Shown: positions 34,622 to 61,772 of the stretch, piece after piece | Numbering within the stretch: position 1 is the stretch's first letter | Layout of the letters: every line of letters begins with the position of its first letter | NCBI GenBank assembly: GCA_951406725.2 | Contig: OX597833.1 | Span: 71,920,001-71,984,000, forward strand | Reading direction: 5' to 3' | DNA length: 64,000 nucleotides | Origin: Octopus vulgaris | Taxonomy: Eukaryota | Notes under the pieces: model-generated | Seen by the model: only the letters and a program-made list of their open reading frames with translations | Databases searched by the model: none | What the model was told of the DNA's origin: nothing | Position numbers and translations under genes: made by a program

Positions 34622-34994
34622 TGACTAAATGTTTCGATGGTGCTGCCCCCAAAACGTTTACAGCAGTGTGTGTGTGTATTGATCGACAAGCGAACTTCTC
34701 ACCCACACAGCCTTACATATTGCAGTCCACATCTTTCTGTTTTGCTCTTCAGATTTGAACCGTTTATATTTTGGGGGTTATAATTTCTTTATTTGAAGGG
34801 ACTTAGGGAATTTTAGGAACTTCTTTAGCAGGAAGTTTTCAAATATGAAAGCATTCAAAATTTCGTAAATGGCGAGGGATCGATCGCAGTTGTTGGTGTT
34901 GCGGTTCCTTCGCTCGTGCGAACAACAACAGTAACAGCAGCAACAACAACGAACAGCCAAAGTCGAGGTTGTCAGGGGAATTGGTGCGTTGGTT

Positions 34995-35027
34995 GTTTCT
35001 AGGCAACGGATATCGTTGTTTAGTGAC
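34995..35027 (+). promoter_or_regulatory. RFX X-box plus forkhead (FOXJ1-type) site in the DRC12-A promoter
   Basis: GTTTCTAGGCAAC (34995-35007) then GTTGTTTAGTGAC (contains TGTTTA), ~130-160 bp upstream of the ATG; conserved in the paralog. Confidence 0.7.
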
Positions 35028-35152
35028 ACGGAAAAAGACCAGAGGAAGCTCAAAGCTTTTAATAGAATCTACAATCGTCTCTGAACACACATGAAATAGA
35101 GTATCACAACCACACTCAAACACATATATACACTCACACACCATAATTCAAA

Positions 35153-38100
35153 ATGTCTACTCAGAAGAAATCTACGAAAACTTCCAAAAAAACTAAGAAA
35201 AAAGACGGTTTGACATGATTTACTTTTATCTACGATTTTTAAAATATTGCCAGTTTGTTGTTGCTGTTGTTGGTATTATTGTTTCTGTTTAACACCAGGC
35301 CACCCCAGTCCTGTCTAACCCTTCTTTATCATGTGTAATTTTTAGGTATCATTTCTAAGACAGCAAGACATGATTTAAAGGGATTTGAGCTGTTATTTTA
35401 GCAGGCTCTCTGCTGGCCCGTGGCTCAAATTGTTCATGCTGTTGCTGTTGATGTTGTTGAACTCTAGGTATTATCTTGATCGAATAGCCAGGCGAGGGAT
35501 CAAAGGCATCCCAGCCACGACCTCTTGTCCCATGTACGCGGAACCCAGGATCACAGTATCCTATGGATTCTTTGGCAGGGTGTTAGAGTGTGATCTGACA
35601 GAGATTTAGGGGTTATTTCCTGAGGGGCAAACGTGCACATCGATGCCCAGTTTTAGCTCAGGGTTTGTCTTCACTTGGGTCAACCTTGCTATTGATACAC
35701 CAGTTATTTTCTATGTCTGTGCCTTTTTTTTATGTTTGTTTGGTTCGAGCAGGAAACAGAGTCGTCCTCTTTCGATGTTCCCGATCGACCGTCTAATGGT
35801 TGTTGTCGTTTTTGTAGGCATTCTGGAAAAGGATGAGAAATTTAGGAAATCACTGGTTGAACTGAATGCCATGAAAGATTACATTGGTAAGTATTGTTAC
35901 ACTTGTCCTCCAGTTTTGGGGGGGAAACTAAGAAATAGGGAGTTGAGCCTGTGGTATGTCTTTCATTCTCCCGGTCTCTCTTGCTTCCTCACACATTCAT
36001 ACTTTAGAGTAGTATTAAGGATATATAGAGAGCAAGACATGATTTAAAGGGATTTGAGCTGTTATTTTAGCAGGCTCTCTGTTGGCCCGTGGCTCATATT
36101 GTATATGAGTGGGAAACGTTGCTGGCTCCTTACGACATCCCTTTACAGTATTGGCAAGATTTTCATCGGGTCCAGGGACACGGAATTATTCCCTTCCAAC
36201 ATTCCTTCAGGACATTCCCAGGAATTTCATGAAATCCAACGGCTTTGGCAGGTTCGGTTTATTCTCTTCAGTATCGAAAGAAGAATTTGGTTGTTGCTCA
36301 CCACATTTCACGGGCAGCACTCGTGCTTCTCCAAATTCCTCATTATGAACACATCCCCCAACAAACACATTCTCTTGCAAATATTTATGGAGACTTTTCT
36401 CTCTCTCTTTGTCTAAATTCGTTTTAAATCTCCGTAACATCCATCCTTCCCCTCTTCTAACAATATGTCTCCTTGCTTTCACTCTGTTCCTCTTCCCCCA
36501 CTTCTCCCTTATAATCAAAGGGTCCCATCTAATGGAATCAATCCGTAATTAACCCCCTCCCCCCTTTATCCTCTCCCTTCTTTAATACTTAGCTTTCATT
36601 CTCTCTCCCTTTCTCTCTCTCTCTTTCACTCTCGCACATACCCTCTCTCCGCTTTCTCTCTCTCTCTCTCTCTTCCTTTATCATTACTTGTTGGCCACCA
36701 TCACTTTCCTTCTTTCCCATTTCTGCTTCTCCTCTCTCTCTCTCTTCAACCATAACACTACTCCTGCTGTTTCTATTCAATTTCCATACAATCAACACAT
36801 AGCCATCTTTTTTCTTTTCTCTTTTTCCCTCCCCTCTCTCTCTCTCCTTAGTTCCCCTCTCTCTCTTCCTAGTTCCCCCCTCTCTCCCTAGTTCCTCTCT
36901 CTCTTCTCACACTCAGTCACGTTGCTTCTATCCAATTTCCTTACCAACAACCATCATATAGCTGTCTGTCACTCCCTCTTTCATCTCTCACTCTTTCTCA
37001 TCTCTCTCTCTCTCTCTCTTTCCTCAATCACTCTTCCCTCACCTTATTTTCTATCCCTCGCTTGTTATCATTCTGGATTACCCCTTCACTTACTCCCCCC
37101 TCTCTCCCTCTCTCTCTTCCTCCCTGGCCCCTTTCCTATCAGTTGTGAGGAGGGAAAGAAAGGGGCAGACACAACAAAGAGAAGGGTTCTCTTAGTTTTG
37201 CTGAGGATGAAACAACCTTTCGTATTTACTGGGAGCTGAGTGAATGGGGGACAATATAGAATAGGGAGGATGTTCTAGTCTTCCTGGGGACAAAACAACC
37301 GCCCTTGCAGAGGGGCCGAGATAGAATACACCACAAGGAGGCTGGCAGGAACAGAGGTATCTAATCCAACAATGGCCACGTCAAAAAACATGGCAATATG
37401 CAAGTGTGATGTGGTCCCCATGGCAACTGACTTCAAATCATGCTGACACATCCAACCCATCTTAAACACCTGGGTACCTTACCTGTAAAATGGTGGTGGT
37501 GATGATTATGACGATGATGATGATGATGATGATGGTGTGTGTGTGTGTGTGTATATGAAATTTTTATGTAGGTCTATATGCATGTATGTATGTGTGTATG
37601 CATGTATGAATGTATGTATGTATGCATGTATGTATGTATGTATATGTTTGTGTGTATATATATATATACTTTATATCATAAAACTTGTAATTGCAGCTCA
37701 GCGTGATCTGATGCTGATGGAAAGTTTGGCAGCTGGCGAAGAACGGAACAAAGAACTGGATCTGTTAAAAATAGATTTTGAGTCACAGAAAGGTGATTAC
37801 AGGTCAATAAGAGCTGGTGAGTGTTGTTCTCGTTTTTTGTTGTAATGATGAGGATGGCGTTGGAGGAAGATGCTGAAGTGATTGTGACCTTCTTCTGCGA
37901 GGGAAGGTGGATGACTGTGGCAAAAATGGTTAAGGTGAATGGAGTTGCTCTAAATATGTAGTTGTGTATCAGAGAATAACAATGGGGCCAGGGTTTTGTG
38001 TTGTTGGGGTCTGGATGGCCCTGGATCTGTGGCTTTTTGTTGGCTTTCTGTTGTTTTTTGTTTTTTTTTGTTTATATTGGTTGTTTTAAACTGCAGAATT

Positions 38101-40655
38101 GGATAAGATGGCCATGTTCGTTTTGATATGTCTCCGTAGATATGACACGGCAGTACAAGACCATGGAGTCGGAGATGAATGCAAGGATACGTATTTTGGA
38201 AACTGAGTTGACAAGCTGTCGAATAAAGTTAAGTAAGTAGCCCCGGGCTGGGGTCTTTTTTTTTTGTATTGGTTTAGAGACAGAATTACTAAGCTGTATA
38301 GGATGGTTTGATTAATATGTTTAATTTAACAATAATGAAGGAATCCAAAGAAAAGGCAAAATTTGTATAGTTTCTCATTTTCAAATCATTTTCATGTTTT
38401 ATTGTTAAAAGCTTAAAATGGAACAGGACAGTTCCAAAATAAGAAACTAAGAGAATAACCTCAGAAAAACAAGATTTATGTTGTAGTTTGATTGTGCAAT
38501 CATAAAAGAGTAAAAGTCCTTAGAAAATAACAGAGAATTTCGTTTTGTAGCCGTTTCAGTCATTCGCATTATCAGATAATCAATAGTGTCTGATGTGATG
38601 CAGTTTTATCTCATTGAATTCAATTCATTTGACTGAAACCTCACAAGGTGGTGCCCCAGCATGGCCACAGTCCAATGACTGAAACAAGTAAAAAATAAGA
38701 GATTAACAAAAATGAAAACTAATCAGTGACACCCAACAACTAAGAATAAAATTTGTTGACTGAGGCCAACAAAAGGACAGCCGATCGATAAAAAGCTGTT
38801 GATTGTAAATCAGTGAATCTTTGATTTAGCAAATTAGTTGATAAAATGGAGAGTCAAATGGCAGAGAATGACACGGTTGGTGTATTTCACAGGTGATAAA
38901 GAATCAGAATTACTAAAGGCACAAAAAGAAGCCAAACTTCTTATGAACCAGAAACAGGAAGAAATTGTGCTTTTCCAGCGGAAGAACAATGCCATGGAGA
39001 ATTCCTACCAGGACATACTTCATGTAAGGGCTCACAACCATTTCCCTGATTTTTAATTCTCAGTTCATTATTTACATAACATGTTGCTATCATCATTATT
39101 GTTCGACCGTGGTCAAGACAATGGAATTTACTATGTTACGCCAGACTTCACGGTCCATCATAGCATTACGGAGGTCCTGTTGCTGGATGCCTGTATCCCT
39201 GGAGATTACATCAGGGTAGGAGAGTGTGCCTACCCATGTTGCTATATTTTCAGCCCCCAACTGATATTAACCTTCTAATAATAAATTAACTCCCATTTCT
39301 CAACATTTTGCAAACATTTGTCAGCACCCTGGGGAAAATGCTTAGCTGCAGTTGATAAAATAAGTACCAGTTGTGTCCGGGGGGTCAATGTTAATCACTT
39401 ACCCCCCCTCCCCCAAATTTGCTGGCCTTGTGCCAAAATTTAAAACCGATAATTTTCCTTGATATTTGTGTTCCTGAGCAGCCTGTTCTGTTGAGTGGAT
39501 CGACTGGAACACATGTAACTGGAAGCATACAGGTTTATTTAATTGTTAATTAATTAATAATTTAATTTTATTCAATTATTCGGGCATTGGAGCTCAATTG
39601 GTTGCAAACATGGGTGTTTGGTGAAGAATTTTGTTGTGCAATCATTTGATTTCAAATCTGGCAAGTGTCACTGGGGGAGGTGGAAATGTAGCCATTAGTC
39701 TGCTGGACGGACAGAACCTGTTGTCCGGTGATAGACTGAATCCGTTACCCAGTTTAAAAAGCCCACAGGATTCCTGGGCCCCTGTTGCAGAATTCACTCT
39801 TCTCTAATTCATTCACAGAAGCTCTTTCGTCTGAAGATAACTCAGCATCTTCCTCCTTTGCCAGAAGCCATGTAAGTGTGAGGCTTCTATGATTAATTCC
39901 ATTCACATCTATGATGTTTTATTGGAATGTTAAACCACCTCCAGCACATGACTGGTACTTTATCATATCAAACAGAGAAGAATGAAAGACAAAGTTGACC
40001 TGAGGATGCAAAAGCTAGGACTTAAATACCACAAGGCATTTAACTCTCACGATTCTACCATGTACTATCCTCCTCCTCCTCCTCATCATCATCATCGTTT
40101 AGCGTCCGTTTTCCATGCTAGCATGGGTTGGACAGTTCTACTGGGGTCTGTGAAGCCAGAAGGCTTCATCAGGCCCAGTCAAATCTGGCAGTGTTTCTAC
40201 GGCTGGATGCCTTTCCTAACGCCAACCACTCTGTGAGTGTAGTGGGTGCTTTTTACGTGCCACCCGCACAGGTGCCAGACAGAGCTGGCAAATGGCCACG
40301 AACGGATGGTGCTTTTTATGTGCCACCGGCACGAGGGCCAGGCGAGGCTGGCAATGAACACGAAACGGGGCGGTGCTGGCAACGGTCGCGAAACGGAAGG
40401 TTCTCCTACATGCCACCGGCACTGGTAACACATCTGCAATTTCCATTGATCGATTTCGATTCTGATCCTCCTCCATAAAATTCACATATTTATTTAAATG
40501 TCTTTTTATTTATTTATTTATTTCAGGGGGCTTTGGATAATCTTGTGTTCAAAATGGAGAAGTTAAAGGATCGATGGGAGAAACAAGCCAAAGTGATTCA
40601 GGCCAGAAATAAGAAAAAACTTCTTGAATTTGGCTTAAATCCTCTTGATTTGTAA
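35153..40655 (+). CDS. DRC12: Dynein regulatory complex protein 12 / CCDC153 homolog, copy A, 6 exons, 198 aa
   Basis: Exons 35153-35207, 35818-35886, 37697-37816, 38140-38232, 38893-39023 and 40527-40655 (597 nt, GT-AG, phases fit). Lys-rich N-terminus, coiled coil, DMTRQYKTM motif and C-terminal [11 protein letters not shown]. Confidence 0.82.
37414..37427. promoter_or_regulatory. Intronic X-box-like site (DRC12-A intron 2)
   Basis: GTCCCCATGGCAAC; the paralog has GTTGCCATGACAAC in its intron 2. Confidence 0.45.
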
Positions 40656-40757
40656 CATTTTGCCTCAAGATTTTCTGCTCCACAAGGTATGGCTTCACCT
40701 TTGTCTTCAGACAATTGTCTTCTCTTCGACAGGAAATGTTTAAAAAGGTTATTACAA

Positions 40758-40920
40758 GGCGCAGGAGTGGCTGTGTGGTAAGTAGCTTGCTAACCAACCA
40801 CATGGTTCTGGGTTCACTCCCACTGCGTGGCACCTTGGGCAAGTGTCTCCTGCTATAGCCCCGGGTCGACCAATGCCTTGTGAGTGGATTTGGTAGACGG
40901 AAACTGAAAGAAGCCTGTTG

Positions 40921-40973
<53 letters not shown>

Positions 40974-41185
40974 TTATGTGTCTGTGTTTGTCCCCCTAGC
41001 ATTGCTTGACAACCGATGCTGGTATGTTTACGTCCCCATCACTTAGCGGTTCGGCAAAAGAGACCGATAGAATAAGTACTGGGCTTACAAAGAATAAATC
41101 CCAGGGTTGAGTTGCTCGACTAAAGGCAGTGCTCCAGCATGGCCGCAGTCAAATGACTGAAACAAGTAAAAGAGTAAAGTGTAAA
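40758..41185 (+). mobile_element. tRNA-derived SINE inserted in the DRC12-A 3'UTR
   Basis: Interrupts AAAAAGGTTATTA|TAAGCAACCAAGG, which is uninterrupted in the paralog at ~52745-52772 (-). Confidence 0.85.
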
Positions 41186-43748
41186 AGAGAGATAAGCAAC
41201 CAAGGCTTTAATTAGGCCCCAAATCGATCCCCTCAATCTTTGTCCATGTAATACAGTGTTTCTGTCTGTCTCAAACTTGTTTGTATTTGAATTCCGCACT
41301 TGCAAGATTCCCTGCCAAATTCTTTCTTCTAAAAATATCAGAATATCTCTGGAATTGTCTGCTGCTTATATCAAAGTACCATCAACCATCACACAAGTCA
41401 TTGATTTGTGGTTGTTCAAGAAAAACATGACCCCCATTGATCTTGCAAGTATGAGAGGGTCTGCAAAGGACAAGAGCCCAGCCAACGCATTAAGAATATA
41501 AAGCAAACAACATCTGACTAGTCTCGGGGATTCCAACCCATTCCTTTTGACCAAACCCTTAAAATCAAAATGCAACTAAAACCTGAAATCATTTATTCAC
41601 TGATACAAAGATTAACATGCTTTTGACTCACGAGGAAAGAACCCTGTATCTGGAATATTTGCGGTTCTACAGGAAGAGAAAGATTTCAAAATTAAACAGT
41701 TTTTTTTTATTTAGAAATTATTTCTTGTCGAGTCTGACCGAAGGGACATTACCGCTGAACATTGCAGGTTCTCTGAGACTTGTGATGGGGTCATTTCTGT
41801 TCCATTTGTAATTCAACATATGCTAAAAAGACATGAACTGGGAGGAAGATTCCAGAGGGATGGCATTGTAGGGAGGAAGAAGGAATGGACATAATGGTGA
41901 GTGCATGGGGGTGGATGGGTGTGAGACGGATTGGGTGCACCTGGGTGACAAGTAGGCGGGGTGGGGGAGACCAGTGTGTGGAGGGTGCATGAATATTGGT
42001 GGTAAGAGGCCGAGACCAACCAGCTCACAGTTCAGAGGTCATTATAGTAGTAGTAGTAGTAGCAAAGGTAGAGAGTGGACACAGCAGCACCCAGTTTTGG
42101 GTTCACGTCTGTTAGTGATTGATTTTCAACCAGTGGGATGTTGATGTTTCGCTCCACGCCAGCCTTGGGCTCAATTCTATTCATCTCTCGCCTTTTTTCC
42201 CCCTCATCTTCTTTTTATATCGGCCAGTCATGAAGAGTTATGTCCCTTCGTTTGGTCTTTTGAATGGAGTCACGAGATTTGGATTTTCATCTCCCAAAAC
42301 TATTAAAACTCCATTAATATAACAAATAAAAGTATTCTTTAAAATAAAAATTCCAAATATCAAAGCGAAATTAAAACAATAATTAAGCAATTTACTTCAG
42401 TTTGAATGAATAAAAATATTTGCACAATAAAAGTAAAGTAATTTGTTTTATTTTGCCTCTGTTGGTTAACGACCTCCATTCTCGTTGATGCATGAAAAAT
42501 TATGAAAGATTCAGATTACAAAAGAAAAATTATACAAAGAGCGGAAATGTGGGCGAGTGGGGGGTGAGTGTATTAGGAGCATTAGGCAAAAAGGAACTTT
42601 ATAAGGTTGTGTGAATTAAAAGCTTATAATAATGAAATTATTGTATACAGTTCTCAGGTGCACCACAACTTGTCAGAGTATATTAAAAGCTTTTAATAAA
42701 TAACTCTAAAAGGAAAACGGATCACAAGTAATGCAAGTTGTTATTTTAAAAAGTAGATGCATTAGGATTTCCCATCCACTCAAGGGACACACTGGTTAGG
42801 TCAGGTTAGAGTCCCCTGATGTCTCTGTCCACTTGCCATTGTTCAGATTAGAGACTGATATACCCAGAGATGAAGGTGCCTCTCCATATTCTCTTCATGG
42901 AAGGCTGACTCATTGGCACACGGGGCAAAACGCTGAATGCAGCATTTTGTCTGTCTCAATCTTCTGAGTTCAAATTCTGCTTCCATCCTTTCAGGGTTGA
43001 TAAAATAAGTACCAGTTATGCACTGGAGTCAATGTAATCAAGTTACCCCCCGCTCCCCGTACTTGCTGGCCTTGTGCCAAAATTTGAAGCCAATGTTTGT
43101 CTTCATGAAACAAATGAGAAATTTTCCCCCTCCTCTTGGTACTTCCCTTGGCATTCCTACTTCAGTCTCTGGTTATTCGATAATATTCCCTTTATCAAAA
43201 GTCTTTTACTTTCATGCTGCAAATATTTTGCCCGTTTTGCCCATTTTTTTCCTCCTCAGCAATCAAGACATGGAAACAGCCTCCGCCCCATCATGTCTCC
43301 CTTATTCTGTTTATCCCCTGCTTTTCCTTTGCCGACTCACTTCTCTTTCATCTTGCTCGTCTCCATAACAACTGCACTCAACACGTTTTTAGAGTAATTC
43401 TTTTTGTCAATTTCGTTGTGTCCAGGGACGGTCATTCTTCCAATAACACATGCGCTGGTTCAATTCCTCTCCTTTAGTATTAGTCAATTGGTTAACTCTT
43501 CACTAACTAATCGATCGTTTGTTTAACTTGGTTGACCAATTAGTCTACTTTTTTGTCAAAGCTCTTTATATCAAATATCATTTATTTTTAGTTTTATACA
43601 ATTTAAGTATAATTTTTTTATATCACATATATATATGTATTCATTAAGTATCGTTTTTATATAAAATATATACCATTTACCATATCAATTATATATCATT
43701 TATAACGTATATCATTCCCACTTTGTTAATAAAATATTTCTTTGTCCT

Positions 43749-43939
43749 TTAATTAAATGGCAGAGAATGGAAGAGTGGAGTTGGCCTCACCATCATCAGA
43801 TAACAAGCAACAATGATGGCACTTCTTGTCCGTCCAGCTTTACAATGGACATAAACACACTGACCAAGTTGTTGATAATAGCTGATGAAAGCCAGGGCTT
43901 GATTGACCTGCCACTCAATGAAATATTCAACTTCCATTC
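43749..43939 (-). pseudogene. Inverted partial PTPMT1 copy (catalytic exon 3 only)
   Basis: Near-identical to ~50308-50490 ([37 protein letters not shown], donor and intron start). Acceptor AG lost; ~31-nt and 12-nt deletions. I found no copies of exons 1, 2 or the coding part of exon 4. Confidence 0.85.
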
Positions 43940-44233
43940 CAAAGATGACACAATTGTAGAGGTGAAAAGGAAAAAGTGAGAAGGAGGGAGAGAGAGAGAG
44001 GGAAAGAGAGTGAAAATTAATTGTTAATTAATAAATCATTTTTTTATAATTACGTTTTATTGTCTTTGAATTCTTTCAGAAAATAATGACTTTATTATTT
44101 CGTAAACCATCCCACTTCCAACATAAATATGTATTGAGTAATTTTGTGTGTGTGTGTGTGTGCATATATGCACATATACACACATACAGATACTACATAC
44201 ACACACCAACAAACATTTATATACATACATATA

Positions 44234-47441: not shown

Positions 47442-50400
47442 ATCAAAATAAGCAACAAGGATATCCAGAGGTAATGCATTACCTGTGGATATCCTTGTTG
47501 CTTATTTTAATTCTAATCACCTTATTTTGAAATTGTATCGATAATACCGTACTAAATTCTGGTGCCTTAACTTAAGTACCATATTCATCTGAATCTAAAT
47601 TTTTACTGAACTCATATATATATATATGGCTATGCTTGAGTACGTATGGTACTAATATCTGTCTGCATTTTCTCTGTGGAATGGTCAACTTTGCAGTAAT
47701 TCCTTCCCAAATCAGACCGGGGGGTCAACCTGATCCCCCCACCCCACTCACAACTGCTTCATCTCCTCCTCCATCCAGGTTACACTGGACTGATGATGAC
47801 ATCTCAACATGGCTGAGCTCCGTTATGGGGACGGAATTGGTCGAAATGAGATTGCGAATGGGGAAGTAGTTTTATTTATGGCTTTGGCCCACGAGAAGAG
47901 GATTTTCAATGGACCTCTTCAGTTTTATGAAATGGTCGGTAAATTCCACAAAGTGCCCCAAATGTGGCTGTGTGGTAAGAAGCTGGCTTGCTGCCCACAT
48001 CGTTCTGGGTTCAATCCCACAGCATTACACCTTGTGAAAGTGTTTGTGTGTGTCTGCGTTTGTCTCACACCACAGTTTGACAACTGGTATTGGTGTGTTT
48101 ATATCCCTGTGACTTAGCGGTTTGGCAAAAGAGATCAACAGAATAGGTACCAGGCTTAAAAAGAACAAAAAAAAAAAGGAGGTCCTGGGGTTAATTCATT
48201 CAACTGAAATACTTCAAGGAGGTGCTCCAGCATGGCCACAGTCTAATGACTGAAACAAGTAAAAGGCGAAAGATAAAAGGTTGTATAAATGCATAAATGT
48301 GGCCTTCAGTCAAATGGGTCTATCAGACATCAAACGCCAACAGAACTAAACAAGGAAAGATTTATTGAGTAATATAGTTCTCAAAGGATGGCTATGGTTG
48401 GATTGTGTTTGATCATAGGTCTGTTCAATCAAGGTTGATTGGATGTTAGGGGACAACAACAACAGCAACATCTTAAGACTTCAGCCTCTTGTGGTGTCAT
48501 CACAGTGAAAAGTCTCATTTGATTCAATGACAGCCTCTTCGTTAATTAACTTTTAATGAAAATTCTGATTGAGTTAATTGAATTTTTCTTTTCTCTTTTC
48601 ATTCCAGTTGGTGGAAAAGGAAAACGTCAGAGGTGTTCTCTCAGCCAATGAAAATTTTGAAACAAAGCATTTTACACCATCAAAAGAGGTAGAATCCATC
48701 TCGGTGTTATAAAGACATCATCACCACCTCCACCACCATCATCATCATCGTTTAACATCCGTTTCCAATGCTGACATGGGTTGGGTGGTCTGACAGAGCT
48801 GCACCAGGTTCCAATCGTCTGGTCTGGCACAGTTTCTGTGGTTGGATGTCCTTCCTTATACCAACCACTTTATAGAATGTACAAAGGGTGCTTTTTCTGT
48901 GGTGACAGCATGGGAAAGTATCTATCATTATATAACGATATATCAGTATGTAAATCAATCAATCAATCAATCCATCTATCCATCCATCAATCCATCCATC
49001 AATCCGTCCGTCCATCCATCCATCCATCCATCCACAGGGTGCATAAGATATTTGAGGACAGGTTTATGTTTATAACAAAAAAACAGATATAATAACAGAT
49101 AATAACTTTATTTATCAAAAACTGCTATGAGGATAAAAATAAACCTTCTTTTCTATAATGTTATTCAATAAAGCCATCTTCAGCTCCAACAACTGCTTCT
49201 ATATGAGATCTAAATCATTTACATGCTTGAATCAAGTGGTCCTGGTTCATTTTGGACATTACTCAGACTATGGCAGCTCTCAAAGAAACTTTGGTTTCTA
49301 TAATGTTATTCAATAAAGCCATCTTCAGCTCCAACAACTGCTTCTATATGAGATCTAAATCAGTTCGATGGATTGAGATCTGGGGAATTAGGAGGCCAAA
49401 TGTTAGGGGTTATGTGATTTCCAGCCATTCATTTCTGTGTTACTAGAGTCATGTGTGATAGTGCAGAGTCTTACTGAAACACATATGGCCCTCCATTGCA
49501 TACACTGTCTATCTAGGGCTTGATTGTTTTCAGGAGGATCTCAATGTAGGCAGCAGAGTTAACTCTAAGGCTCACATAGATATATATCTTAACAGACCTG
49601 TTGACATGAAAAAGAGGCATCTATCTCCATGTAGAAAGTATTTACAAACACATAAATATATATCTAATATATGAAGCAGACCTGTAGACATTGGGAAATT
49701 TTTACAGAAATGAACCTGAACATACAGCTAGAGAAATAGAAAGCTGGAGAAGAATATAAAAAAATGAAAGTACCTTTAGAAATTCTTTTTATTAGAAACC
49801 ATCACAATTGTAATGATGTATACATACGTGTGTGCGTGTGTGATTGTGTGTGTAAATAGTCGGTTATTTAGTTACTACGTCAGAACACCAGACACAGGAA
49901 GTTGACATTGGCAAAACAGCTGAAATGAATCTTTCTGTTATATATAAAGCAATATTATTTATTTCCAATGTCAAATTGTTCACGTACCCCAAGTATGGTA
50001 CAGATTGATCCAGAGGTTTGGCCATGCACAGACAACACACACACACAGGCACCGCATTTTACATAGTAAGATAATGTATATTTTTAGTTGGTGCATTCTA
50101 CAATTAGAAAATAACTATAAAATGCAATTATAGAGAATAATTTTATTAACGCTTTTTCTCTCTCTCTTTCTTCCTCTCTCTTTCCTTCTCTTTCACCCTC
50201 CTTTATATATATATATATATATATGTTTCTTTCTAAGGAATGGAAGGATCTTGGTGTTGGTTTCCTTCAAGTGGAAGTTGAAGATTTCATTGGGACACCC
50301 AGCTTGTGGCAGGTCACTCAAGCCCTGGCTTTCATCAGCTATTATCAACAACTTGGTCAGTGTGTTTATGTCCATTGTAAAGCCGGGCGGACAAGAAGTG

Positions 50401-51016
50401 CCATCATTGTTGCTTGTTATCTGATGATGGTGAGGCCAACTCTACTCTTCCATTCTCTGCCATTTAATTAAAGGACAAAGGAATATTTTATTAAAAAAGT
50501 GTGAATATTTCATCTCATGCACGAAATAGAAATGTTTTATGAAACAATTTATAAATGATTCAATTAATGAAATACAAGATATTTAAATGTTATTAATGCT
50601 ATATAATATATATTTTATAATTGATATATAAATACTATACACATGATACAATATATTGTTATAAGAATTACATAAATATTTGGGATAGTAAAGGATGCAT
50701 GTGAAAAAGGCCTTGTAAATGCCATAGAATTTGGATGACATATAAATTATATATATATTATATACATATACACATACATATATAAACAAATGTATATGAG
50801 CATATCTATCTAAATGTCCTTCTGTGTGTGTGTGTGTGTGTTACGAATAATATATAAGTGACGTATGAATTCTGAAAATGCTTTGTAATATATAATATAA
50901 ATGATATAAGTATTACGGAGTTTATAATATACAAACGATATTACACTCTGACACGTGATATTAATGATAAATGAATTAACCAACAGATAAAGTAACCCTT
51001 ATAACTATAATCAAAC

Positions 51017-51068
<52 letters not shown>

Positions 51069-51416
51069 CCTGCAAGCTAATGAAATCCTTGTTTTGATTA
51101 GATTAACGAGAGCTGTACCTAAGACACGCTACCTAGTTACAACTAGTTATACTGATCCAACAAGAGTTAAATGTCTTGACCAAGGTTATTGTTGTGTTGC
51201 CAGTCCAATTCCTAACCAATGTCCTCTCTGTTTGGCTCCCTTTTTTTCATACCAAACATGTCTACGTATTTACAGAAGAACCAGTGGGATGACACGACCG
51301 CATGGAACCACATCCTCTCCAGATGCACCCATGTGCGACTGACCCAGCAACAGCAACAATTCCTTCACTTCTTCTACTTAACTGAGACCAGTATGCAGAA
51401 ACTAAGAACCAGATGA
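47134..51416 (+). CDS. PTPMT1: Mitochondrial phosphatidylglycerophosphatase / dual-specificity phosphatase PTPMT1, 4 coding exons, 193 aa
   Basis: Exons 47134-47301, 48608-48688, 50238-50429 and 51276-51416 (582 nt, all phase 0). Motifs [36 protein letters not shown] and P-loop [13 protein letters not shown]. An acceptor at ~47081 implies an upstream 5'UTR exon. AATAAA at ~51908. Confidence 0.92.
47445..47508. repeat. Near-perfect 64-bp palindrome beside (TA)n in PTPMT1 intron
   Basis: AAAATAAGCAACAAGGATATCCAGAGGTAATG|CATTACCTGTGGATATCCTTGTTGCTTATTTT, one mismatch. Confidence 0.9.
49034..49570 (-). mobile_element. Tc1/mariner transposase remnant with an internal ~67-bp direct duplication
   Basis: Minus strand reads [10 protein letters not shown] at ~49368-49398. 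ACAGGGTG TIR-like end at ~49034. Segment 49151-49217 is repeated at ~49296-49362. Confidence 0.65.
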
Positions 51417-52856
51417 TTCCCAACTCAGACAAGCTTCAACCTCCATTCAGTTTACAAGAAATAGCGACTCAACATATATTTATCGGCTGAAATCAATCCA
51501 ATATGAACTCTTCTGAAACCTTGGGTGTCCCTCCACAACAACTTATATTAAACTCACTTTAACAATTTGATCTCAACATACGGCTTTAGCTCAACGTACG
51601 ACAGCCACAATGCATCATAGAATGACTTCAACCCACAAGAACTACTTTAACTCAACATACAACAGCCTCAACCCAATATATAAAACAATCTCATCTTAAT
51701 TAATATGATCTCACTCCCCAGTTATTCTATAACGAACTCAACCCTTTTCATGAGCTCCCTTCAAAGTAAGATGGCCAGCACTCGGCCCAGCCTTCGTCTA
51801 TCAGCTGCCATTGTGTAAATTGTTGAATTATTCAAACTGAAGTAAATTGTTTAATGTTTACTTTGATTGTTGGTATTTTTATTTGGAAATATTTCTCTGT
51901 TTGTTGTAATAAAGGTTTCCAGTTTGGCACAAGGCCAGCATGTTCGGGTGGGAGAGGGGTAAGCCGATCGCATCACCCCCACCCCACATGCTCTGCTGGG
52001 GCATATTTTAGGTTTGTTGTAACAAGGGACTTTAAAAGCTAACTGATTAAAAGGGACAATTTTGTGATTGCATTAGTTATATTATCGAGCAAGGGACGTA
52101 ACTCAAATGTGAACGGTGAACCAACCTGGTCCAAGATTTTTTTTGACACATTTACTCTCTAACCACCCAAACAAAAGAAATAGGGCTCCTCACGGCAGTC
52201 AAAGGAACGTATTTATCAAATTATACTGTTACAGCCAGACTTGTTTTTATTCTTATTTAACCCCGAGATCAGTCCTGATCGAGGAGATTTGTGATTCAAA
52301 GCATTTAAGTTATTTTAAGGCATTGTCTATCTTGGACAACATTAAGCATTTTTGGTACAGTAGTGTGATACGATGGAGATTTGGCTTCTATTTTCAGCAG
52401 TCCAGGTGCTCATGGAGACATTTTCTTGTCTGGAAAAAAGCGGATTGCGGGGGTTTCGGAACAAGGGACATAACTCTAGCCGAGTGGCTATGCCTACTTT
52501 GTGAGGACAGTTCTCTGTATAGTAAAAAAGACCCTTTTGGGGTCAATAATCCCTTGTATCTGGTGTCTCTAAACCAATGGGAGAGAAAAAGAGAGTCCCT
52601 ATGTGACTTCTGATTCTGCTGGAAATAGCAGTCAATCACACCTTCCTATATTAAATAATGACACTGTAGGGGATGTTGTACATGAAGACCTTAGCTCTAA
52701 CCTACAAACAAACTCGTGACCCCACTAAAGCGTGCCTAATTAAAGCCTTGGTTGCTTATAATAACCTTTTTAAACATTTCCTGTCGAAGAGAAGACAATT
52801 GTCTGAAGACAAAGGTGAAGCCATACCTTGTGGAGCAAAAATCTTGAGGCAAAATA

Positions 52857-53911
52857 TTACAAATCGAGTGGATTTAAGCCAAATTCAAGAAGTAGTTTCT
52901 TATTTCTGGCCTGAATCATTACACCGTGTCCTTCGAAATGATCTCTTCCTGTATTGATTTGCACCACAAGGTTATCGAAAACTTGCTGGAATAAACAAAT
53001 AAAGAAATGTTTTTCATTTAAGGCGTAATAATAACAATAATAATAATAATAATAATCATAATAATAATAATGATCCTTTCTATGATAAAAGCAAAGCCTT
53101 AAATTTTTTTTGCAGGGGTGGGGTGAGTAGGTGGTTAGACAATTACATCGACCCCAGTACTCAACTAATGCTTATTTCAATGACCCTGGAAGGGCGAAAG
53201 GCAGAATTTGAACTCAGTGTAAAGACATGAAATGCCACTAAGTATTTTGTCTGGCATGCTAACGATTCTGCCAACTTGCTATCTTAATAATGATGATGAT
53301 AATATTGATAATAATAAAAATAATTTATTGTAACTATGAATATTTACTGTGACATAACCTTTTCAATCCAAACTTTAAAAAACTTTCTAGATAGAAATCT
53401 CAAATACAACCTCAGTTCAATCCGAACAGTAAAACCAAATGTATTATCTATAAACAGAAACACCAACCTTACACATAAAGAATATTCTGACCTGAATATG
53501 ACACATCTATTTACTCCTTTACTTCTTTACTTGACTGAAGCCAAAACAACAATACTATTCCTGTGTCATACCAAAATAAATCTCCTCACCATACATTTGT
53601 ATTATGTCATACCTACAAACACATATTTGCTTCTTATCCTTCTCTGTTCCACCTTCTTCCTCTACAACTATTTCCCCTGTTTACTTTCACTATACATATT
53701 AAAAAAAACCCCACCAAACACTGTATAAAGCCAGAAAGAACCACATTGAATCACCCCCTGATGAAGCCAAAACTTTGAAGTCAGTCAACCTTTCCCTTGA
53801 GCAACTCTGTTGAACAATACTGAGTTATCTGTCAGTATAATGTTAGATTGTTTCTATAAATAACATTAAATTAAACAATAATATACATAAATGTGTGTGA
53901 GTAATATATAC

Positions 53912-53954
<43 letters not shown>

Positions 53955-56199
53955 TACATATATACATGTGTGTGTGTGCATAGCAATGTATGTACACACA
54001 CACACACACACCAGCAATAGTCTTCTTTCTGTTTCTATCCAACAAATTCACTAACAAAGCTTTGGTTACTGAAGTAGAAGACCTTTATGCCAAAGACACT
54101 TGACCAAGGCACCACGCAGCTTGATTGAACCCCAAACCTCTAAAACCATGTGGTTGAGGAACAAATGTCTTAATCATGTGGCTAATGTGTGTGTATGTGT
54201 GTGTGTGTGTGTGTGTTGGCAGAGATTTTAAAATAGTAAACAGAATGTCTTGTAGAATTGGTTCCAGCTCTTGGCACTCAAAGTTCAAACAGTGCTGGGC
54301 TTAGTTTCGCATTTCGTCCCTCAGGGGACGCAGTAATGAACTAATCCAGGACTATTCTTCTCTCTTTCTCTTTCTCTTTTGAAAAACTCAGCCATGGTAA
54401 TATTTGGTCCCCATTCCTTTCAATACCAAACTCCACCCATCACTGTCCACGGTTCTATGAGACAAACTTTCTGTTTTTAGAATGATCGAAATTTAAATCT
54501 TACTTCAAAATTTCATGTGAATTCAGGTTCCAAACACCAGCCTAATAACGAGAAAGTTCTTTTACTAAATTCTTCCACATATTCAAATCAATAGAAATAA
54601 AGATGGTCGAGAGAACGTGGGTAACGAAAGGTTTGAAATGTCCAAGAGGTGCCATGTGCCATGATGGTGCCCCAACTGACTTGAAGAGAAGATCTCAACT
54701 GATATGAAGGAACATAACCTTTCCAAAAACATTAACAAAGGAGACTGTATGTGTTAGATAAAGCTTTAAGAAATAACAGCCAAATTTACTCAAATCACAC
54801 TTTACTGCCTCTGGGAAAAGACTACATTGGATAATTTTAATTTGAATGTATTATTTGTGGAAAAGACAGGATAATTATGGTTGGAATACTTCTAACCAAC
54901 AATTTTTTCAAATGCTTTTCTTTCCTTTTTCTCTACCAGAATAAATGGGATGACTTTTATTGGAGAAATTGTTTTGTTGTCTTCTTTCCAAATTGCATGG
55001 CCTCCATATTGTTAATGACTCAACAAAAAAGTGGGAAAAGATAAAAATTGATAAAAATTCAAATAAAAATGTAATTTTGGTAGAGAATTGTATGAAGTTG
55101 AATGAGATGTGTTCCAGGATGTCTGCCCAAACATTACGAAACTCTTTTAAGAATACATTGATATTTAATGAAGGACATACAACCATGAAATCCATTCTTT
55201 GACCCAGAGAAGATTTTTGGGGGCAGCTTTATGTGAAAAGAATATTGAGAAATAGGGACTTAATGTTGGTATAACACTGAGTAGAAACTGATTGTTTAAT
55301 TTGAAGAGAAAATTGAAGATAAGAAACAGTTTAATGTTAGTAAAATATTAAAAAATAAGAGTTAGTTTATTATTAGAAAAATCCCGAGAAACAAATGGTA
55401 AAATTAATGACGACAGAAGAATATGACAGGGGTCAGGTTAATGTTAGTTGGGGGCTGAAAATATAGCAGCATGTTAATTAAAAAAGGAAACTGAGAATCA
55501 AGGATCAGGCACATGAGCCCTTACATGAATTATTTTTTCATAGAAACTCTGAATTGAATTTTGCTTGTGGTGAAGAAGATCGATTTCTTTCTGTTTTTCT
55601 TTAAGATGTTGCATCGTTTCTGCTCGTGTACTCAACAGCTTTGCTTCTGTTTCACCTGCGAAAAACAGTCTTCAATTTTGAATTTTACTGTTACTTCGTT
55701 TTATCAATTATTTGTTTGTCTGTCTGTCTGTCTGTCTGTTTGCCTGCCAGCTTGCCTGTCTGTCCGTCTGTCCCTCTGTCCATCTCTCTGGCTGGCCGGC
55801 ATTTTCTCTGTCCGTCTGTTCGATTTACCAACAAACTGTTTGTCACTTGATTTCTAAAACTCTGGCCAAAAGAACCTGAATCTTCCAGACTTTTATTAAC
55901 TTTCATTTGTCTTTTCTGTGTCTGTGACCGTCCACGATTTAGTGGCTCAGTGGTCAGTGTGTTGCACTCGCAATTGCAAGGTTCTGGGTTTGATTCCCAG
56001 ACCAGACAGAGTGTTGTGTTCATTTCATGTTGCTCCAATCCATCCAGCTATGATGGACTGGAGTTCCATTCCTGGGGGATGTTGGCCTGTTTGTCTGCCT
56101 TATCAGCTGCAGGACATCATTCAAAAGCTACAACAATATGTGGAAGTGCATTGTGAGTAGTGGTGTATAACAACATCTGATAGTCTGGCAATTACAGCG

Positions 56200-56233
<34 letters not shown>

Positions 56234-56637
56234 ATACACACACATATAAATATGTATATACATATGTCATAGGCAGAGAAGTGGCTGTGTGGTAAGAAAC
56301 TTGCTTCCCAACCACATGGTTCTGGGTTCAGTTCCACTGCATGGCACCTTGGACATGCAGTGGGCATGCTGACCAAAGCCATGTCAGTGGATTTGGTAGA
56401 CAGAAGCTGAGAAAAGCCTGTCGTGTATATATATATCATCATCATGCAAATTCGTGAAGCGTTCCATATTTTTTGGGCGCAGGAGTGGCTGTGTGGTAAG
56501 TAACTTGCTTACCAACCACATGGTTCCAGGTTCAGTCTCACTGCGTGGAACCTTGGGCAAGTGTCTTCTACTATAGCCTTGGGCCGACCAAAGCCTTGTG
56601 AGTGGATTTGGTAGATGGAAACTGAAAGAAACCCGTC

Positions 56638-56673
<36 letters not shown>

Positions 56674-58532
56674 GTATGTGTGTGTGTATATGTTTGTGTT
56701 TCTGTGTTTGTTCCCCCAACATTGCTTGACAACCGATGCTGGTGTGTTTACATCCCCATAACTTAGTGGTTCGGCAAAACTGACTGATAGAATAAGTACT
56801 AGGCTTACAAAGAATAAGTCCTGGGGTTGATTTGCTCGACTAAAGGCGGTGCTCCAGCATGGCCACAGTCAAATGACTGAAACAAGTAAAAGAGCAAAGG
56901 AATAAAAGAACATATACATACATATATCCTCATCATCATCATCGTTTAACATCTGCCTTTCATGCTGTGTGTATAGAAACACTAGCTTAATACAAACGAA
57001 ATAATTTTACTAAATTTTTCATTGTTTTTGAAATTAATTCAAAGTCTGTATCAAGAGAAATATGGCAACAAAAGTTAACCATTTGAAGAAGCCAATCAAT
57101 TCTGTTTCAGAAAACCAAAACAAAACTAAATTCAACCTAGGAATACTTACGTAACTTTTGCTTACAACAAGCCAGTTTGGTTTCCAGAAGGTGTACCTTC
57201 ACACTCATTTCTGATTCCATTGTCTTGTACTGTCGTTTCATTTCTAGGAAGAGATATCAGACCAAATACATTAAAGCTAGGCACCTGTTATCGGGAATGT
57301 TGTCAGAATGCAATCCCTGTTCTCTGTTGGTCGATCAACGAGGTCAGGGCTTTGTGGATTATTACATTCTTAAGTGGATTAACAGGGAATGTGAGTAGTA
57401 ACATAATCAAAGACGTTTTAGGAATTAATAAAGATCGAATGAACAGAATACTCCAGAAGCTGTTCACTCTGAAGACTTTGCACAGTTCTAGAAACATCTG
57501 ACCTGAAAGCGCTACCAGGAAGTATTACTGTTTCAGGATAAACTCCAGAGGTGTAAAAGTGCCATTAGTTTGGCATGTCCAAGACATGCTCAAACTGATG
57601 AAGTCAAATGGGAAAAAATTACATATAAGCAAGCAAAAACAGACATTTATACCAGACAGAAAAGAGAAATGATGATTTCACAAACACAACTAACAATGAA
57701 GACTGCAGCAAAGGCACAAAATTTGCTAAAGTTGTTAATGAAACAGAAATTCTTTTGAATATAAGTCATCTCTAACAAATAACAGATTGTGGCATTGGGG
57801 TCTGTTGACAGAGCAAAGAGAAAAAGGGACATACATCTACGTATCAAAAAGAATAAGGATTTTCAACAGATCCTCAAAGGAGACATCAAAAGAAATGAAT
57901 GAAATATTGTGGGGCTTCTCTGACCAAGGGTGTACAATTTTTTAAGTGATTTATAAAACCATCAAATCTCAGAGAATGAGTCTGTAAGAGAAGAAAATGA
58001 AGTGAAGAACATCGGAAGCAAGAAACCAAAATAAAAGGTGACCCCTATTTGTAGAGAAGCAATTACTATTTCAACATTCTCCTATGTCACCACCCTGATC
58101 CCTAAATACATACAATTGACTCCAAACAATAGAATAATGAAGAGACAACACTTACCCTCTGAAACTGACTTGTAATCCCCTTTCTGTGTCTCCAGTTCGG
58201 CCCTCAACATGTTCAGCCGTTTGTGACAGTCTGACCTGTTTGCCACACTCTTTACAAGCAGCGAATGGCGTTGGGCTGGAATTCAACAAATTTACTGGGT
58301 TTAATTCGCATCATATACATGTGGGTGTGTAGGTGTGGGTGTCCCCTTTTGTGTATATATATACGCAGGAGTGGCTGTGTGGTAAGTAGCTTGCTAACCA
58401 ACCACATGGTTCCGGGTTCAGTCCCACTGCATGGCATCTTGGGCAAGTGTCTTCTGCTATAGCCTTGGGCCGACTAATGCCTTGTGAGTGGATTTGGTAG
58501 ACGGAAACTGAAAGAAGCCTGTCGTATATATG

Positions 58533-58563
<31 letters not shown>

Positions 58564-58964
58564 CTGTGTTTGTCCCCCTAGCATTGCTTGACAACTGATG
58601 CTGGTGTGTTTATGTCGCCATCACTTAGTGGTTTGGCAAAAGAGACCGATAGAATAAGTACTGGGCTTACAAAGAATAAGTCCAGGGGTCGATTTGCTCG
58701 ACTAAAGGCGGTGCTCCAGCATGGCCGCAGTCAAATGACTGAAACAAGTAACAGAGTAAAAGAACAAAAGAGTATATATATATATATTTCACAAATCACC
58801 ATTTGAGTAAAACAGTGATGGAGATGTTCACATTGGTGGTTGCCATGACAACTGGTTGCTTGGTTCTTTTAAAGAAGTGACGGAATAAAAAAGAAACAAA
58901 ACAAATATCTCTCATTCTCAAAAACTGGAGAAAGATGGTGAAAGGAAGGGAGTGGAAAGAGGTA

Positions 58965-59004
<40 letters not shown>

Positions 59005-59877
59005 TTGAAAGTGTGTATACACATGCACACACACACACACACACTCTCCATTTCCAACTTTTACCAAAGTATAAATGTTAAAATTCTTACCAAGATATTC
59101 TTTCAAATTATTCAGTTCCACAATTGAGTTCTGGAATTTCTCCTCCTTTTGTCTGTCTTCATAAGCTTGCATGTCTAGTACTACAACAACAACAATAAAA
59201 CCAACCATAATATTTTTCATTGTGAAAACTGGGAAAAAAAGAGAAAAATCTGGATTTCTCTTTTTTAAACCATTAGTGCAAGGACAATGAGACTTAAACC
59301 AGCAAATCCCCTAATCCCAGGGAATGTCCTAAGGGGATCTCTTTTTTTAAGGGCTGCCTAATTGGGGCCACACTGACTCCACTATTTTTACTGCTAAATA
59401 CATGGCACTGGCGACCAAGTCGGAGCAATGACAATGAATTTCATACCACAAACTCCCAGGGAGTATCTTAAGGGGGCTCAATTTCTGAAGGGCCGCTTAA
59501 TTGGGGGCCACACTGACCCCCACCCTCTATTTTTACTGCATTTGCCTCGCCCCTACGCTTATTGATCAGCATCATTTTTTAACACATTTGCAGAAATAAG
59601 TTCAGCCATTCTAAATTTCTTCCCCTACATTCAAATGGAGATAAAGGGTTCTAACAGGTACGTTTCAAGTGTGGTAGGGTGGATGTTTATATTTTGGAGT
59701 TTATGAAACTTATGTCTAAGATATATATATATATATACACACACATATGCGTATATATGCTTTCCAACCTCATGCTTCCGGGTTCAGTTCCACAGTGTGT
59801 CACTTTGGGTGTTTTCTACCATAACTGAGTAAAGCCTTGCAAATGGATTTGGTAAATAGAAACTGAAAGAAGCCTGT

Positions 59878-59922
<45 letters not shown>

Positions 59923-60701
59923 AATTAATAACTAAAACATATGCATATATACATACATATATGTACGTACCTACCTCTGCATGTATATATACATGCATAT
60001 ATGGGTACAGGACACCAAAAAAACGTCAAACACAATGAGAAACGAAAACATAAACACAAAACCAAGGAACTGGACATGTATATAAATGTATATGTATGTA
60101 TATGTATATAAATGTATATGTATGTGTGTGTGTGTGTATTCACTTGTCACTTATGGATGAGGAAAGGAGTACTCAATCCATGTGCAAAAGTATGTTGGTT
60201 TTTAATACTCATCCCCTTCGTCACGAGACGAAATCAACTGCTGGAATAAAAGCCACGATGCTGTAATGGGAACAACGCCAAAGCAAGAACACCAGAAAGC
60301 AACCAACAGAAGAAGCAAGAGACGGGGGCGGGGGACAGGCAGACACTGATCGGTGAGAAAGAAGAGGCGTTTGTCTTGCTCGAAATAGCAGCCAAATCTC
60401 CCTCAAATTTCGGTCAATAGTTTTAAAACTAGAAGGTCTCTCTGAATAATGTAATCCTAGATACACTTATGCGTGAGGGTATGATGGGATTGTTATTATT
60501 TACTCCCAGATCCGCTAAAAAGGGCTGACCTGGAAACAACAACGACAACAACAAGGGCAATGAAAACATCAGCAACAACAACAACACGAAGACGACGACG
60601 ACAATAGCAACATAATGTAACGTCAAAAAATAAAATGGAGTCAAACCATTTTTTTTGCTAGGTTTTTTGGCCATTTTTGGAGCTTTCTTCTTGGTCGACA
60701 T
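52857..60701 (-). CDS. DRC12: Dynein regulatory complex protein 12 / CCDC153 homolog, copy B, 6 exons, 203 aa
   Basis: Minus-strand exons 60701-60647, 59174-59091, 58275-58156, 57243-57151, 55655-55525 and 52985-52857 (612 nt). Same exon sizes as copy A except exon 2 (+15 nt). [13 protein letters not shown] and [11 protein letters not shown]; no in-frame stops. Confidence 0.82.
53340..53860 (+). mobile_element. Degenerate Penelope-like element 3' end
   Basis: [17 protein letters not shown] resembles the LxTxxPxGLN tail of PLE GIY-YIG domains. A CTGATGA remnant sits at ~53758, next to (TA)n. Confidence 0.4.
58839..58852. promoter_or_regulatory. Intronic RFX X-box (DRC12-B intron 2)
   Basis: GTTGCCATGACAAC, one mismatch from the GTTGCCATGGCAAC palindrome. 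Confidence 0.55.
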
Positions 60702-60751
60702 TTTCAGTTGGTGTGTGTGTGTCTTTGTGAACGTGTGTGTGTGTCTATATC

Positions 60752-60800
<49 letters not shown>

Positions 60801-60918
60801 ATGAGTGTGTGCGTGTGTGTGTGTGTGTGTGTGTGATACTCTATTTCATGTGTGTTCGTTCAGAGACTGTTTTGTAGATTCTATTAAAAGCTTTGAGCTT
60901 CCTCTGGTCTTTTTCCGT

Positions 60919-60951
60919 GTCACTAAACAACGATGACCGTTGCCTAGCAAC
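60919..60951 (-). promoter_or_regulatory. RFX X-box plus forkhead site in the DRC12-B promoter
   Basis: GTTGCCTAGCAAC (60939-60951) and GTCACTAAACAAC (60919-60931). Confidence 0.72.
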
Positions 60952-61772
60952 GACCAACGCACCAATTCCCCTGACAACCTCGACTTTGGCTGTTACTGTT
61001 GTTGTTGTTTTTATTTTTATTGTTGGAAGCAACGAAGGGAACATCAAGGAACCGAGGCAAGGAATAGAGAGGAACCCATCGCCCTCATTCAACTCTTGAT
61101 CCCTTCCATCGAGGAAGTCCAGAAAGTAAAAACCCCACAAGGGGGTAAAAGATAAGGGAGTCCCTTGAAGACGGCGACGGAGTCAGAAGACGAACCCGGA
61201 AAGCATTTTAGCAAGTGAAGGTAGACAGGTGCATTGTATGCTGTACACCTTGAGCGGGTAGACACCACAAACAGGGTTACCTACTACCACCACCACCACC
61301 ACCACCGCCACCACTGCTACTGCTCAGTCCATTGCATATACAAGTACGCACGGTCCCCACCCTCCCCTATACACGGCTCGCAGCTCCTCGCTCACCATTC
61401 CACACAAACTACACCTCTTCGTCCTCATTAATCTCCTTTAATTCCTGTTTCAACGAATTCAACGTTTTTTCATACAAGTTTCCTTGTCTAATCAAGACTT
61501 TACCACTTTTTGCTAAAAAATTTATACGACCCACCCCCACCCCCCACCCACGCAAGATACTCGTTTACGCTGTAAGACATTGGTTACGTAACCATAGCTA
61601 CCATAAAACATCTTCTCTCCCACCACCGTATCCTTTCAAACTCAAAATTTTGATAAATTAAAATTTTGTGAGTTCTCTCCCTTAATTCTTTTAAGAGTAA
61701 TTTTCATTAGCTCGGCCTCCTTAGCATGGATCTACGATCTAGAAGGGTTTAAACTGGCTTTGCTTACGTTTC

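Follow-up and report, generated by a model that had tools for sequence, protein, structure and literature searches.

A retained inverted duplicate of DRC12 beside a PTPMT1-like gene in Octopus vulgaris, with probable gene conversion at its ends

The 64,000-nucleotide stretch of Octopus vulgaris DNA analyzed here (contig OX597833.1, positions 71,920,001 to 71,984,000; hereafter the window) contains two genes of the DRC12/CCDC153 family, DRC12-A on the plus strand and DRC12-B on the minus strand. The two genes are convergent, tail to tail, and a PTPMT1-like gene lies between them and overlaps the 3′ end of DRC12-B. They are an old inverted duplicate that has been retained as a pair. Self-BLAST of the window reproduced the mirror-ordered homology blocks reported in an earlier note on this DNA, with ~34.9-44.0 kb matching 50.1-61.0 kb in inverted orientation (Table 1). 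The inversion proposed in that note stands. Its size of ~26 kb is the span of both arms and the spacer, not the size of an arm: the left arm is ~9 kb (34907 to ~44050), the right arm ~11 kb (~50120 to 61040) and the spacer between them ~6 kb. The block that covers exon 6 and the 3′ end has two matching places in the 2.8-Gb genome, both in the window. With a cuttlefish DRC12 as query, five of six genome matches fall inside the window and the sixth (E=0.68, four stops) is spurious. The duplicated unit very probably consisted of the DRC12 gene together with the overlapping 3′ half of PTPMT1.

Each gene has six coding exons with GT-AG introns, identical phases and frames free of stops, in agreement with the open frames and complete splice sites claimed in the earlier note, whose identity counts for exon 3 (16/40), exon 4 (18/31) and exon 5 (14/44) were matched exactly on recount. 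The coding region of DRC12-A (35153-40655) encodes 198 amino acids, and its spliced product is letter-for-letter the protein annotated in O. vulgaris and O. sinensis (P0001). Short direct repeats of 94-96% identity (35358-35433 and 36027-36102) are present in its introns 1 and 2. DRC12-B (60701-52857) encodes 203 or 205 amino acids depending on the exon-2 acceptor; the RefSeq form uses an acceptor 6 nucleotides further upstream and has 205. Records of B include isoforms of 205, 167 and 123 amino acids in O. sinensis, the 123-amino-acid form in O. vulgaris and a record in O. bimaculoides.

Table 1. Inverted blocks and annotated features of the DRC12 locus, in window coordinates
Feature	Position	Strand	Remarks
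Inverted block	34907-35140 vs 61038-60798		86%, self-BLAST
Inverted blocks, exons 2, 4 and 5			69-76%, self-BLAST
Inverted block	40505-40758 vs 53007-52755		84%, self-BLAST
Inverted block	42311-42428 vs 51915-51810		71%, self-BLAST
Inverted block	43714-43936 vs 50506-50272		91%, self-BLAST
DRC12-A promoter/5′ tract	34953..35107	+	96% to that of B; 145 matches, 6 mismatches; function inferred
RFX X-box-type motif, A	34995-35007	+	within A promoter tract
DRC12-A coding exon 1	35153..35207	+	
DRC12-A exon 2	35818..35886	+	
DRC12-A exon 3	37697..37816	+	
DRC12-A exon 4	38140..38232	+	holds the RQYKTM core of the family
DRC12-A exon 5	38893..39023	+	
DRC12-A exon 6	40527..40686	+	stop ends 40655; donor after 40686; A-type RNA contig departs from genome at donor
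Homogenized tract 2	40594..40758	+	last 20 codons, untranslated region, first 72 nucleotides of intron 6; 94-99% to B
SINE-like repeat (short interspersed element), A intron 6	40759..41191	+	no counterpart in B here; next 26 nucleotides identical to B
PTPMT1 3′-end relic inside A intron 6	42311..42428	-	old; 71-79% identity
DRC12-A exon 7, putative, non-coding	43764..44050	+	AATAAA at 44030; end approximate; acceptor same as that of B
PTPMT1-like gene, intact, 193 amino acids	47134..51416	+	exons 47134-47301, 48608-48688, 50238-50429, 51276-51416; AATAAA at 51908
DRC12-B exon 7, non-coding	50125..50456	-	antisense over PTPMT1 exon 3; AATAAA at 50147; end approximate
DRC12-B exon 6	52827..52985	-	stop ends 52857; donor after 52827; RNA contig match 159/159
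DRC12-B exon 5	55525..55655	-	alternatively skipped; skipping gives 123-amino-acid product
DRC12-B exon 4	57151..57243	-	also in RNA contig
DRC12-B exon 3	58156..58275	-	
DRC12-B exon 2	59091..59180	-	RefSeq acceptor; second AG 6 nucleotides further in
DRC12-B coding exon 1	60647..60701	-	
DRC12-B promoter/5′ tract	60833..60989	-	X-box-type motif at 60939-60951

The assignment to the DRC12 family is supported by several comparisons. A has 58 matches, which include named mollusc and fish CCDC153 proteins at 32-42% identity over ~90% of its length; B, annotated as CCDC153-like, is 31-38% identical to named CCDC153/DRC12 proteins from outside the cephalopods. A profile built with both copies has Tetrahymena CCDC153 as its sole PDB match (E=1.2e-18, four chains in two entries), which is also the best PDB match of B alone, but with E=0.06. 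The RQYK(T)M core and the C-terminal FGLNPLD motif are invariant in an 11-row alignment that includes both copies. AlphaFold2 predicted one long helix for each protein (residues 18-190 in A and 18-197 in B, mean predicted local distance difference test score 89; both predictions used the same 42 sequences and are not independent), preceded by a disordered, basic, Lys-rich N-terminus. At E<=0.1, neither A nor four exons of B matched any Pfam family, and it seems that the library lacks a model able to detect these proteins.

The two proteins are identical at 93 of 198 aligned residues (47%). By the Nei-Gojobori method, the synonymous divergence (dS, near saturation) is 1.03 and the nonsynonymous divergence (dN) is 0.35. 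The resulting dN/dS of 0.34 (95% bootstrap interval 0.21-0.52) indicates that the pair is under purifying selection, as judged from the coding sequences, and gives no sign of positive selection at the level of the whole gene. Three species, O. vulgaris, O. sinensis and O. bimaculoides, have both genes in their annotation, and between-species identities are 82% for A and 81-83% for B. Taken with the splicing of both copies described below, these data bear out the view of the earlier note that the pair has been retained. In a tree of 53 rows, A and B, joined by their respective O. bimaculoides orthologs, form a group that leaves the cuttlefish protein outside (support 100/98), and the grouping persists at 99/95 when exon 1 and the last 20 residues are removed (20 rows). 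The approximately unbiased test retains the alternative that pairs A with the cuttlefish protein (p=0.158); one DRC12 copy was seen in cuttlefish. Among 144 further representatives of 50% identity clusters, none was closest to A or B, and two had the cuttlefish protein as their closest match, in one case at 71%. On this sequence evidence, the duplication predates the split of O. vulgaris and O. bimaculoides and probably, although not certainly, postdates the split from cuttlefish. A pair that is ancient and general in metazoans, raised in the earlier note as a case that would undo its proposal, is supported neither by the trees nor by the cluster representatives. Two close CCDC153-like records on one contig of Bulinus truncatus (P0030 and P0031) represent an independent, recent DRC12 duplication, so DRC12 duplicates are not unique to octopus.

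Two samples each contain spliced transcripts of both DRC12 genes. Four public runs were aligned at the last coding exon of B, with arm B as the only target; no run is recorded as RNA, and the RNA status of two of them rests on the splice junctions seen. In run X14, from organism A, a 643-nucleotide contig matches B exon 6 at 159/159 bases and joins it upstream directly to exon 4. Downstream, the same contig departs from the genome at 52827 and resumes at 50456, so that the junction between exons 6 and 7 is read directly. Run X10, from organism B, contains both upstream junctions of DRC12-B, and a 191-nucleotide contig consists of exon 5 and two 30-nucleotide flanks (30+131+30). A-type contigs were found in both X14 and X10, giving A and B transcripts in two of two RNA runs; contig depth is not a measure of expression here. 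The earlier note had allowed that one copy might never be transcribed or spliced, and these contigs show otherwise. An assembly artefact involving collapsed arms was also considered and is rejected on the basis of the contig that matches B exon 6 at 159/159, of another contig with A-specific letters and of the annotation of both genes in three species.

Skipping of exon 5 changes the fate expected for the B message. A stop codon well upstream of the last exon junction marks a transcript for decay under the 50-nucleotide rule. The stop of the skipped, 123-amino-acid form lies 145 nucleotides before the last junction, compared with 30-31 nucleotides for the normal stops. The skipped form would therefore be expected to be a substrate of nonsense-mediated decay, and skipping of exon 5 is likely a means of adjusting the amount of full-length B.

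Each gene most likely has a seventh, non-coding exon. That of B is read in the RNA contigs. For A, the RNA contig shows just the first base past the exon-6 donor, the alignment target having been arm B, and the exon is proposed from its homology and splice sites. The B exon lies antisense over the whole of exon 3 of the PTPMT1-like gene, and B intron 6 contains exon 4 of that gene, for which we use the name PTPMT1 given in the earlier note, no search having assigned it; a DSPc domain was found in its exon 3 (Pfam, E=3e-12). The earlier note had placed PTPMT1 blocks, including an exon 3, in the left arm as well. The homology holds, but tblastn found no copy of PTPMT1 exons 1, 2 or 4 in the left arm, only part of exon 3. 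The absence of these exons, together with the donor and acceptor available to A for a seventh exon, leads us to read the left exon 3 block as most likely the terminal exon of A. A second phosphatase gene in the left arm was rejected: the 5′ part of exon 3 is degraded there, with a 12-nucleotide deletion and no acceptor at the matching place, and its other exons have no left copy. Both DRC12 mRNAs would carry complementarity to the PTPMT1 catalytic exon (43764-43916 and 50238-50456), B in cis and A in trans. The overlap with PTPMT1 exon 3 is a possible source of double-stranded RNA or of an editing substrate, to judge from the sequence. Downstream of the window, at 84573-89484 in window numbering (contig ~72,004,573-72,009,484), lies a second four-exon PTPMT1-like gene on the plus strand, in the same orientation and 51-58% identical per exon, which indicates that PTPMT1 has also been duplicated at this locus; no DRC12 remnant was found near it. 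Short direct repeats of 94-96% identity (49137-49220 and 49282-49365) occur within PTPMT1 intron 2.

The identity between the arms forms a mosaic. Three tracts are 94-99% identical: the promoter/5′ tract (~155 nucleotides), the final 20 codons together with the beginning of intron 6, and exon 7. In the second tract, the last coding bases match at 58/62, the untranslated region at 29/30 and the start of intron 6 at 71/72, with a further 26/26 beyond the SINE. In the third, the end of intron 6 matches at 43/45 and the first 153 nucleotides of exon 7, the part complementary to PTPMT1 exon 3, at 147/153 (96%). The ends of intron 6 are thus identical at 140/143 bases in total. Its first and last 40 nucleotides match at 40/40 and 38/40, compared with 14-24/40 (ungapped) for the corresponding stretches of introns 1-5. 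Exon 6 contains a step in identity, from 36/67 (54%) just before the second tract to the 58/62 of the tract itself. In the proteins, the C-terminal 20 residues are 90% identical between paralogs, both in O. vulgaris/sinensis and in O. bimaculoides, and 80-90% identical between orthologs; residues 83-178 are 35-41% identical between paralogs and 76-81% between orthologs. One Arg/Lys site sorts by species, not by paralog. At position 52856, both letters are present in both arms across four organisms represented by public runs, and a B-type contig of one of them (organism D) runs into the SINE that here sits in arm A; both observations are suggestive only. Compared with the six nearest full-length copies within 144 kb, the SINE has 87-90% identity, which gives a crude hint that it predates the most recent homogenization.

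We consider it probable that gene conversion from arm to arm keeps these tracts alike. The intronic identity favors conversion, because it is hard to obtain from selection on two half-different proteins. Long-lasting segmental concerted evolution is a described process, as in two studies of gene pairs (PMC2720389, PMC2588116). The tracts might instead have been conserved independently, as a promoter, a C-terminal motif and an RNA element that pairs with PTPMT1 mRNA for antisense control or as an editing guide. They do fall on functional parts; the PTPMT1 reading frame on the opposite strand constrains B exon 7, A exon 7 keeps its catalytic-exon complementarity with 4 of 42 codons differing, and a synonymous test of conversion is not significant once corrected. 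Independent conservation is nevertheless quite improbable, as it would have to account for near-complete intronic identity on either side of a SINE that is itself 10-13% diverged from its neighbors, for a tract border that falls sharply inside a coding exon, and for letters that paralogs share by species.

Combining conversion with what is reported of DRC12 suggests a function for the pair. The published Tetrahymena model places a DRC12 homodimer, cross-linked to DRC1, in the linker of the nexin-dynein regulatory complex (PMC10504270; PDB 8th8, 8tid), and a further paper repeats this assignment (PMC12747526). Simulations of duplicated homodimers, as summarized in PMC11066126, commonly favored heteromers as the outcome. 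The homogenized parts are those that set expression, together with the C-terminal motif, and since DRC12 is a reported dimer, this favors co-regulation with an A/B heterodimer. In our leading reading, to which we give a probability of roughly 0.4, conversion homogenizes the ends, the near-identical promoters would lead both proteins to be made in the same ciliated cells, and A/B heterodimers, beside A/A, would assemble at the dimeric DRC12 site of the complex. Co-expression in the same cells has a slightly better than even chance in our judgment; if it occurs, formation of the A/B heterodimer is fairly likely. A fuller version, in which the homodimer has turned into an A/B heterodimer, conversion locks the promoter, the C-terminal anchor and the 3′ untranslated region while the core diverges, and the mRNAs may also act as antisense or editing partners of PTPMT1, is rather doubtful. 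An X-box-type motif occurs in both promoters, and the window contains four such sites where 0.22 would be expected. The presence of both transcripts in the two RNA runs and the single long helix predicted for each protein also favor the leading reading. Several points weigh against the leading reading. The search pattern was written after the site had been seen and is post hoc, and an X-box alone does not predict RFX control, as the source of the consensus indicates (PMC2375033). A crude tally of attractive and repulsive charges at e and g positions gives 16/2 for A/A, 13/3 for A/B and 8/6 for B/B; the poor score of B/B fits the leading reading, but A/A scores best, so A needs no B. The two RNA runs come without tissue or cell resolution and may be whole animals or mixed organs. 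As for conversion, the compared organisms, at ~98% identity, are not distant enough for a deep test across species; each DNA run yielded one contig, possibly a chimera of the arms; and the synonymous signal is weak (16/18 against 39/62, Fisher p=0.045, or p=0.11 when corrected for window choice), with a proportion of synonymous differences of 0.16 in the tract and 0.61 outside it. Plain purifying selection may also hold the C-terminal motif and the promoter. Two observations on B, its sole contig in run X14 and its altered core residues, also count here and are taken up below.

The earlier note proposed a sub- or neofunctionalized pair, for example one copy for the sperm flagellum and the other for somatic cilia or hair cells. 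In such a partition, A and B homodimers would serve different axonemes, for example one in the sperm flagellum and the other in somatic cilia or in hair cells of the statocyst, and their specificity would come from sequences beyond the shared tract. The deep divergence of the proteins under constraint (93/198, dN/dS 0.34) and the fast evolution of both lineages between species (A 82%, B 81-83%) are in line with it, and the introns and the stretch from the promoter tract to the start codon differ, making separate enhancers possible. However, the promoter tract of ~155 nucleotides is 96% identical, the exons of the 3′ untranslated region are common to both genes, A and B transcripts occur in both RNA runs, and the B/B charge tally is the least favorable. 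The retention proposed in the note is thus upheld; its split between sperm and soma is not shown, and the promoter tract and the joint transcripts in these coded runs lean mildly against it. We regard tissue partition as somewhat unlikely. It is also conceivable that A is the working DRC12 and that B is relaxed and mostly non-productive, kept through its PTPMT1 overlap and the conversion of its ends, with skipped RNA or the 123-amino-acid protein as its main products. The sole B contig from run X14 skips exon 5, and the O. vulgaris record of B is the short form. B has altered three near-invariant residues of the core motif (A81, D82 and T84) and a conserved Trp (W173), and relative to Aplysia it carries 29 unique changes, compared with 16 in A (chi2 3.8). 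Yet all six exons of B are still open after a dS of ~1, the O. bimaculoides record spans exons 4-6 in frame at 83% identity, and run X10 contains B transcripts that include exon 5. At conserved columns, A departs about as often as B (24/70 and 26/70; cuttlefish 17/70), and measured against cuttlefish the two copies do not differ in rate (28 vs 23). We consider a relaxed B improbable.

No paper on the octopus DRC12 pair was found by searches for CCDC153 and by accession, supplements not being covered, and none was found on a DRC12 heterodimer. Both genes are already in the public annotation; of the new findings, the antisense seventh exon and the mosaic suggestive of conversion have the best support. 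The protein itself was named in 2023, with no tested function given in the passages on it (PMC10504270). If both are used, two chains that are 47% identical would be a natural experiment on which dimer surfaces matter. The locus further provides a compact case of an old duplicate in which probable conversion is limited to the regulatory ends. A practical consequence is that short reads from either the promoter or the 3′ end are not assignable to one copy; single-cell octopus data based on 3′ tags would likely blur A and B, and the 3′-tag signal may be confused with antisense signal of PTPMT1.

Other elements were observed in the window. An intronless open reading frame of ~204 amino acids on the minus strand (5762-6373) encodes two tandem CARD domains (Pfam CARD, E=2e-25) and is possibly a retrocopy or a CARD-only regulator. 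A weak Pfam match to KIAA1328 (hinderin), below the cut-off (17375-17554, plus strand, E=3e-4), is followed downstream by an open frame of 405 codons (23250-24467, plus strand) with an X-box-type palindrome at 23298; this frame may be an exon of a KIAA1328-like gene. A PIF1 helicase fragment (32996-33670, plus strand, Pif1_2B_dom E=1e-17), located 1.3 kb upstream of the DRC12-A promoter, is probably a Helitron relic. Local palindromes of 200-470 bp and 79-99% identity (8343-8948, 12652-12864 and 19728-20196) are probably elements resembling miniature inverted-repeat transposable elements.

The mechanisms that underlie the locus are ordinary: a lineage-specific duplicate, segmental concerted evolution and a possible shift from homomer to heteromer. 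Tail-to-tail overlapping gene pairs that form cis natural antisense transcripts are a known class, and the last exon of B over PTPMT1 exon 3, with PTPMT1 exon 4 in B intron 6, resembles them. Unlike these pairs, the octopus locus likely carries a second antisense exon in its duplicate A, complementary in trans. The BMP8A/B, DDX19A/B and TUBG1/2 pairs undergo segmental concerted evolution (Carson and Scherer 2009, PMC2720389; Osada and Innan 2008, PMC2588116). Like the octopus pair, they are old neighboring duplicates in which homogenized segments, including intron, lie beside diverged ones. In the octopus pair, however, the tracts are short (~150-200 nucleotides) and located at the regulatory ends, and the coding core has a dS above 1. 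Tetrahymena DRC12/CCDC153 (PMC10504270) belongs to the same family and shares the length of ~200 amino acids, the Lys-rich disordered N-terminus, the single long predicted helix and the RQYK-M core. Two identical chains occupy its site, whereas octopus has two paralogs that are 47% identical, both putative axonemal proteins. Paralogous heterodimeric coiled coils of the axoneme appear in the same source (DRC1/2, DRC4A/4B, DRC9/10, CCDC39/40 and CCDC96/113) and provide a precedent, in the same complex, for two related chains in one coiled coil. These pairs were established by structure, whereas the octopus DRC12 heterodimer is a prediction; if correct, it would be a recent counterpart of these older axonemal pairs.

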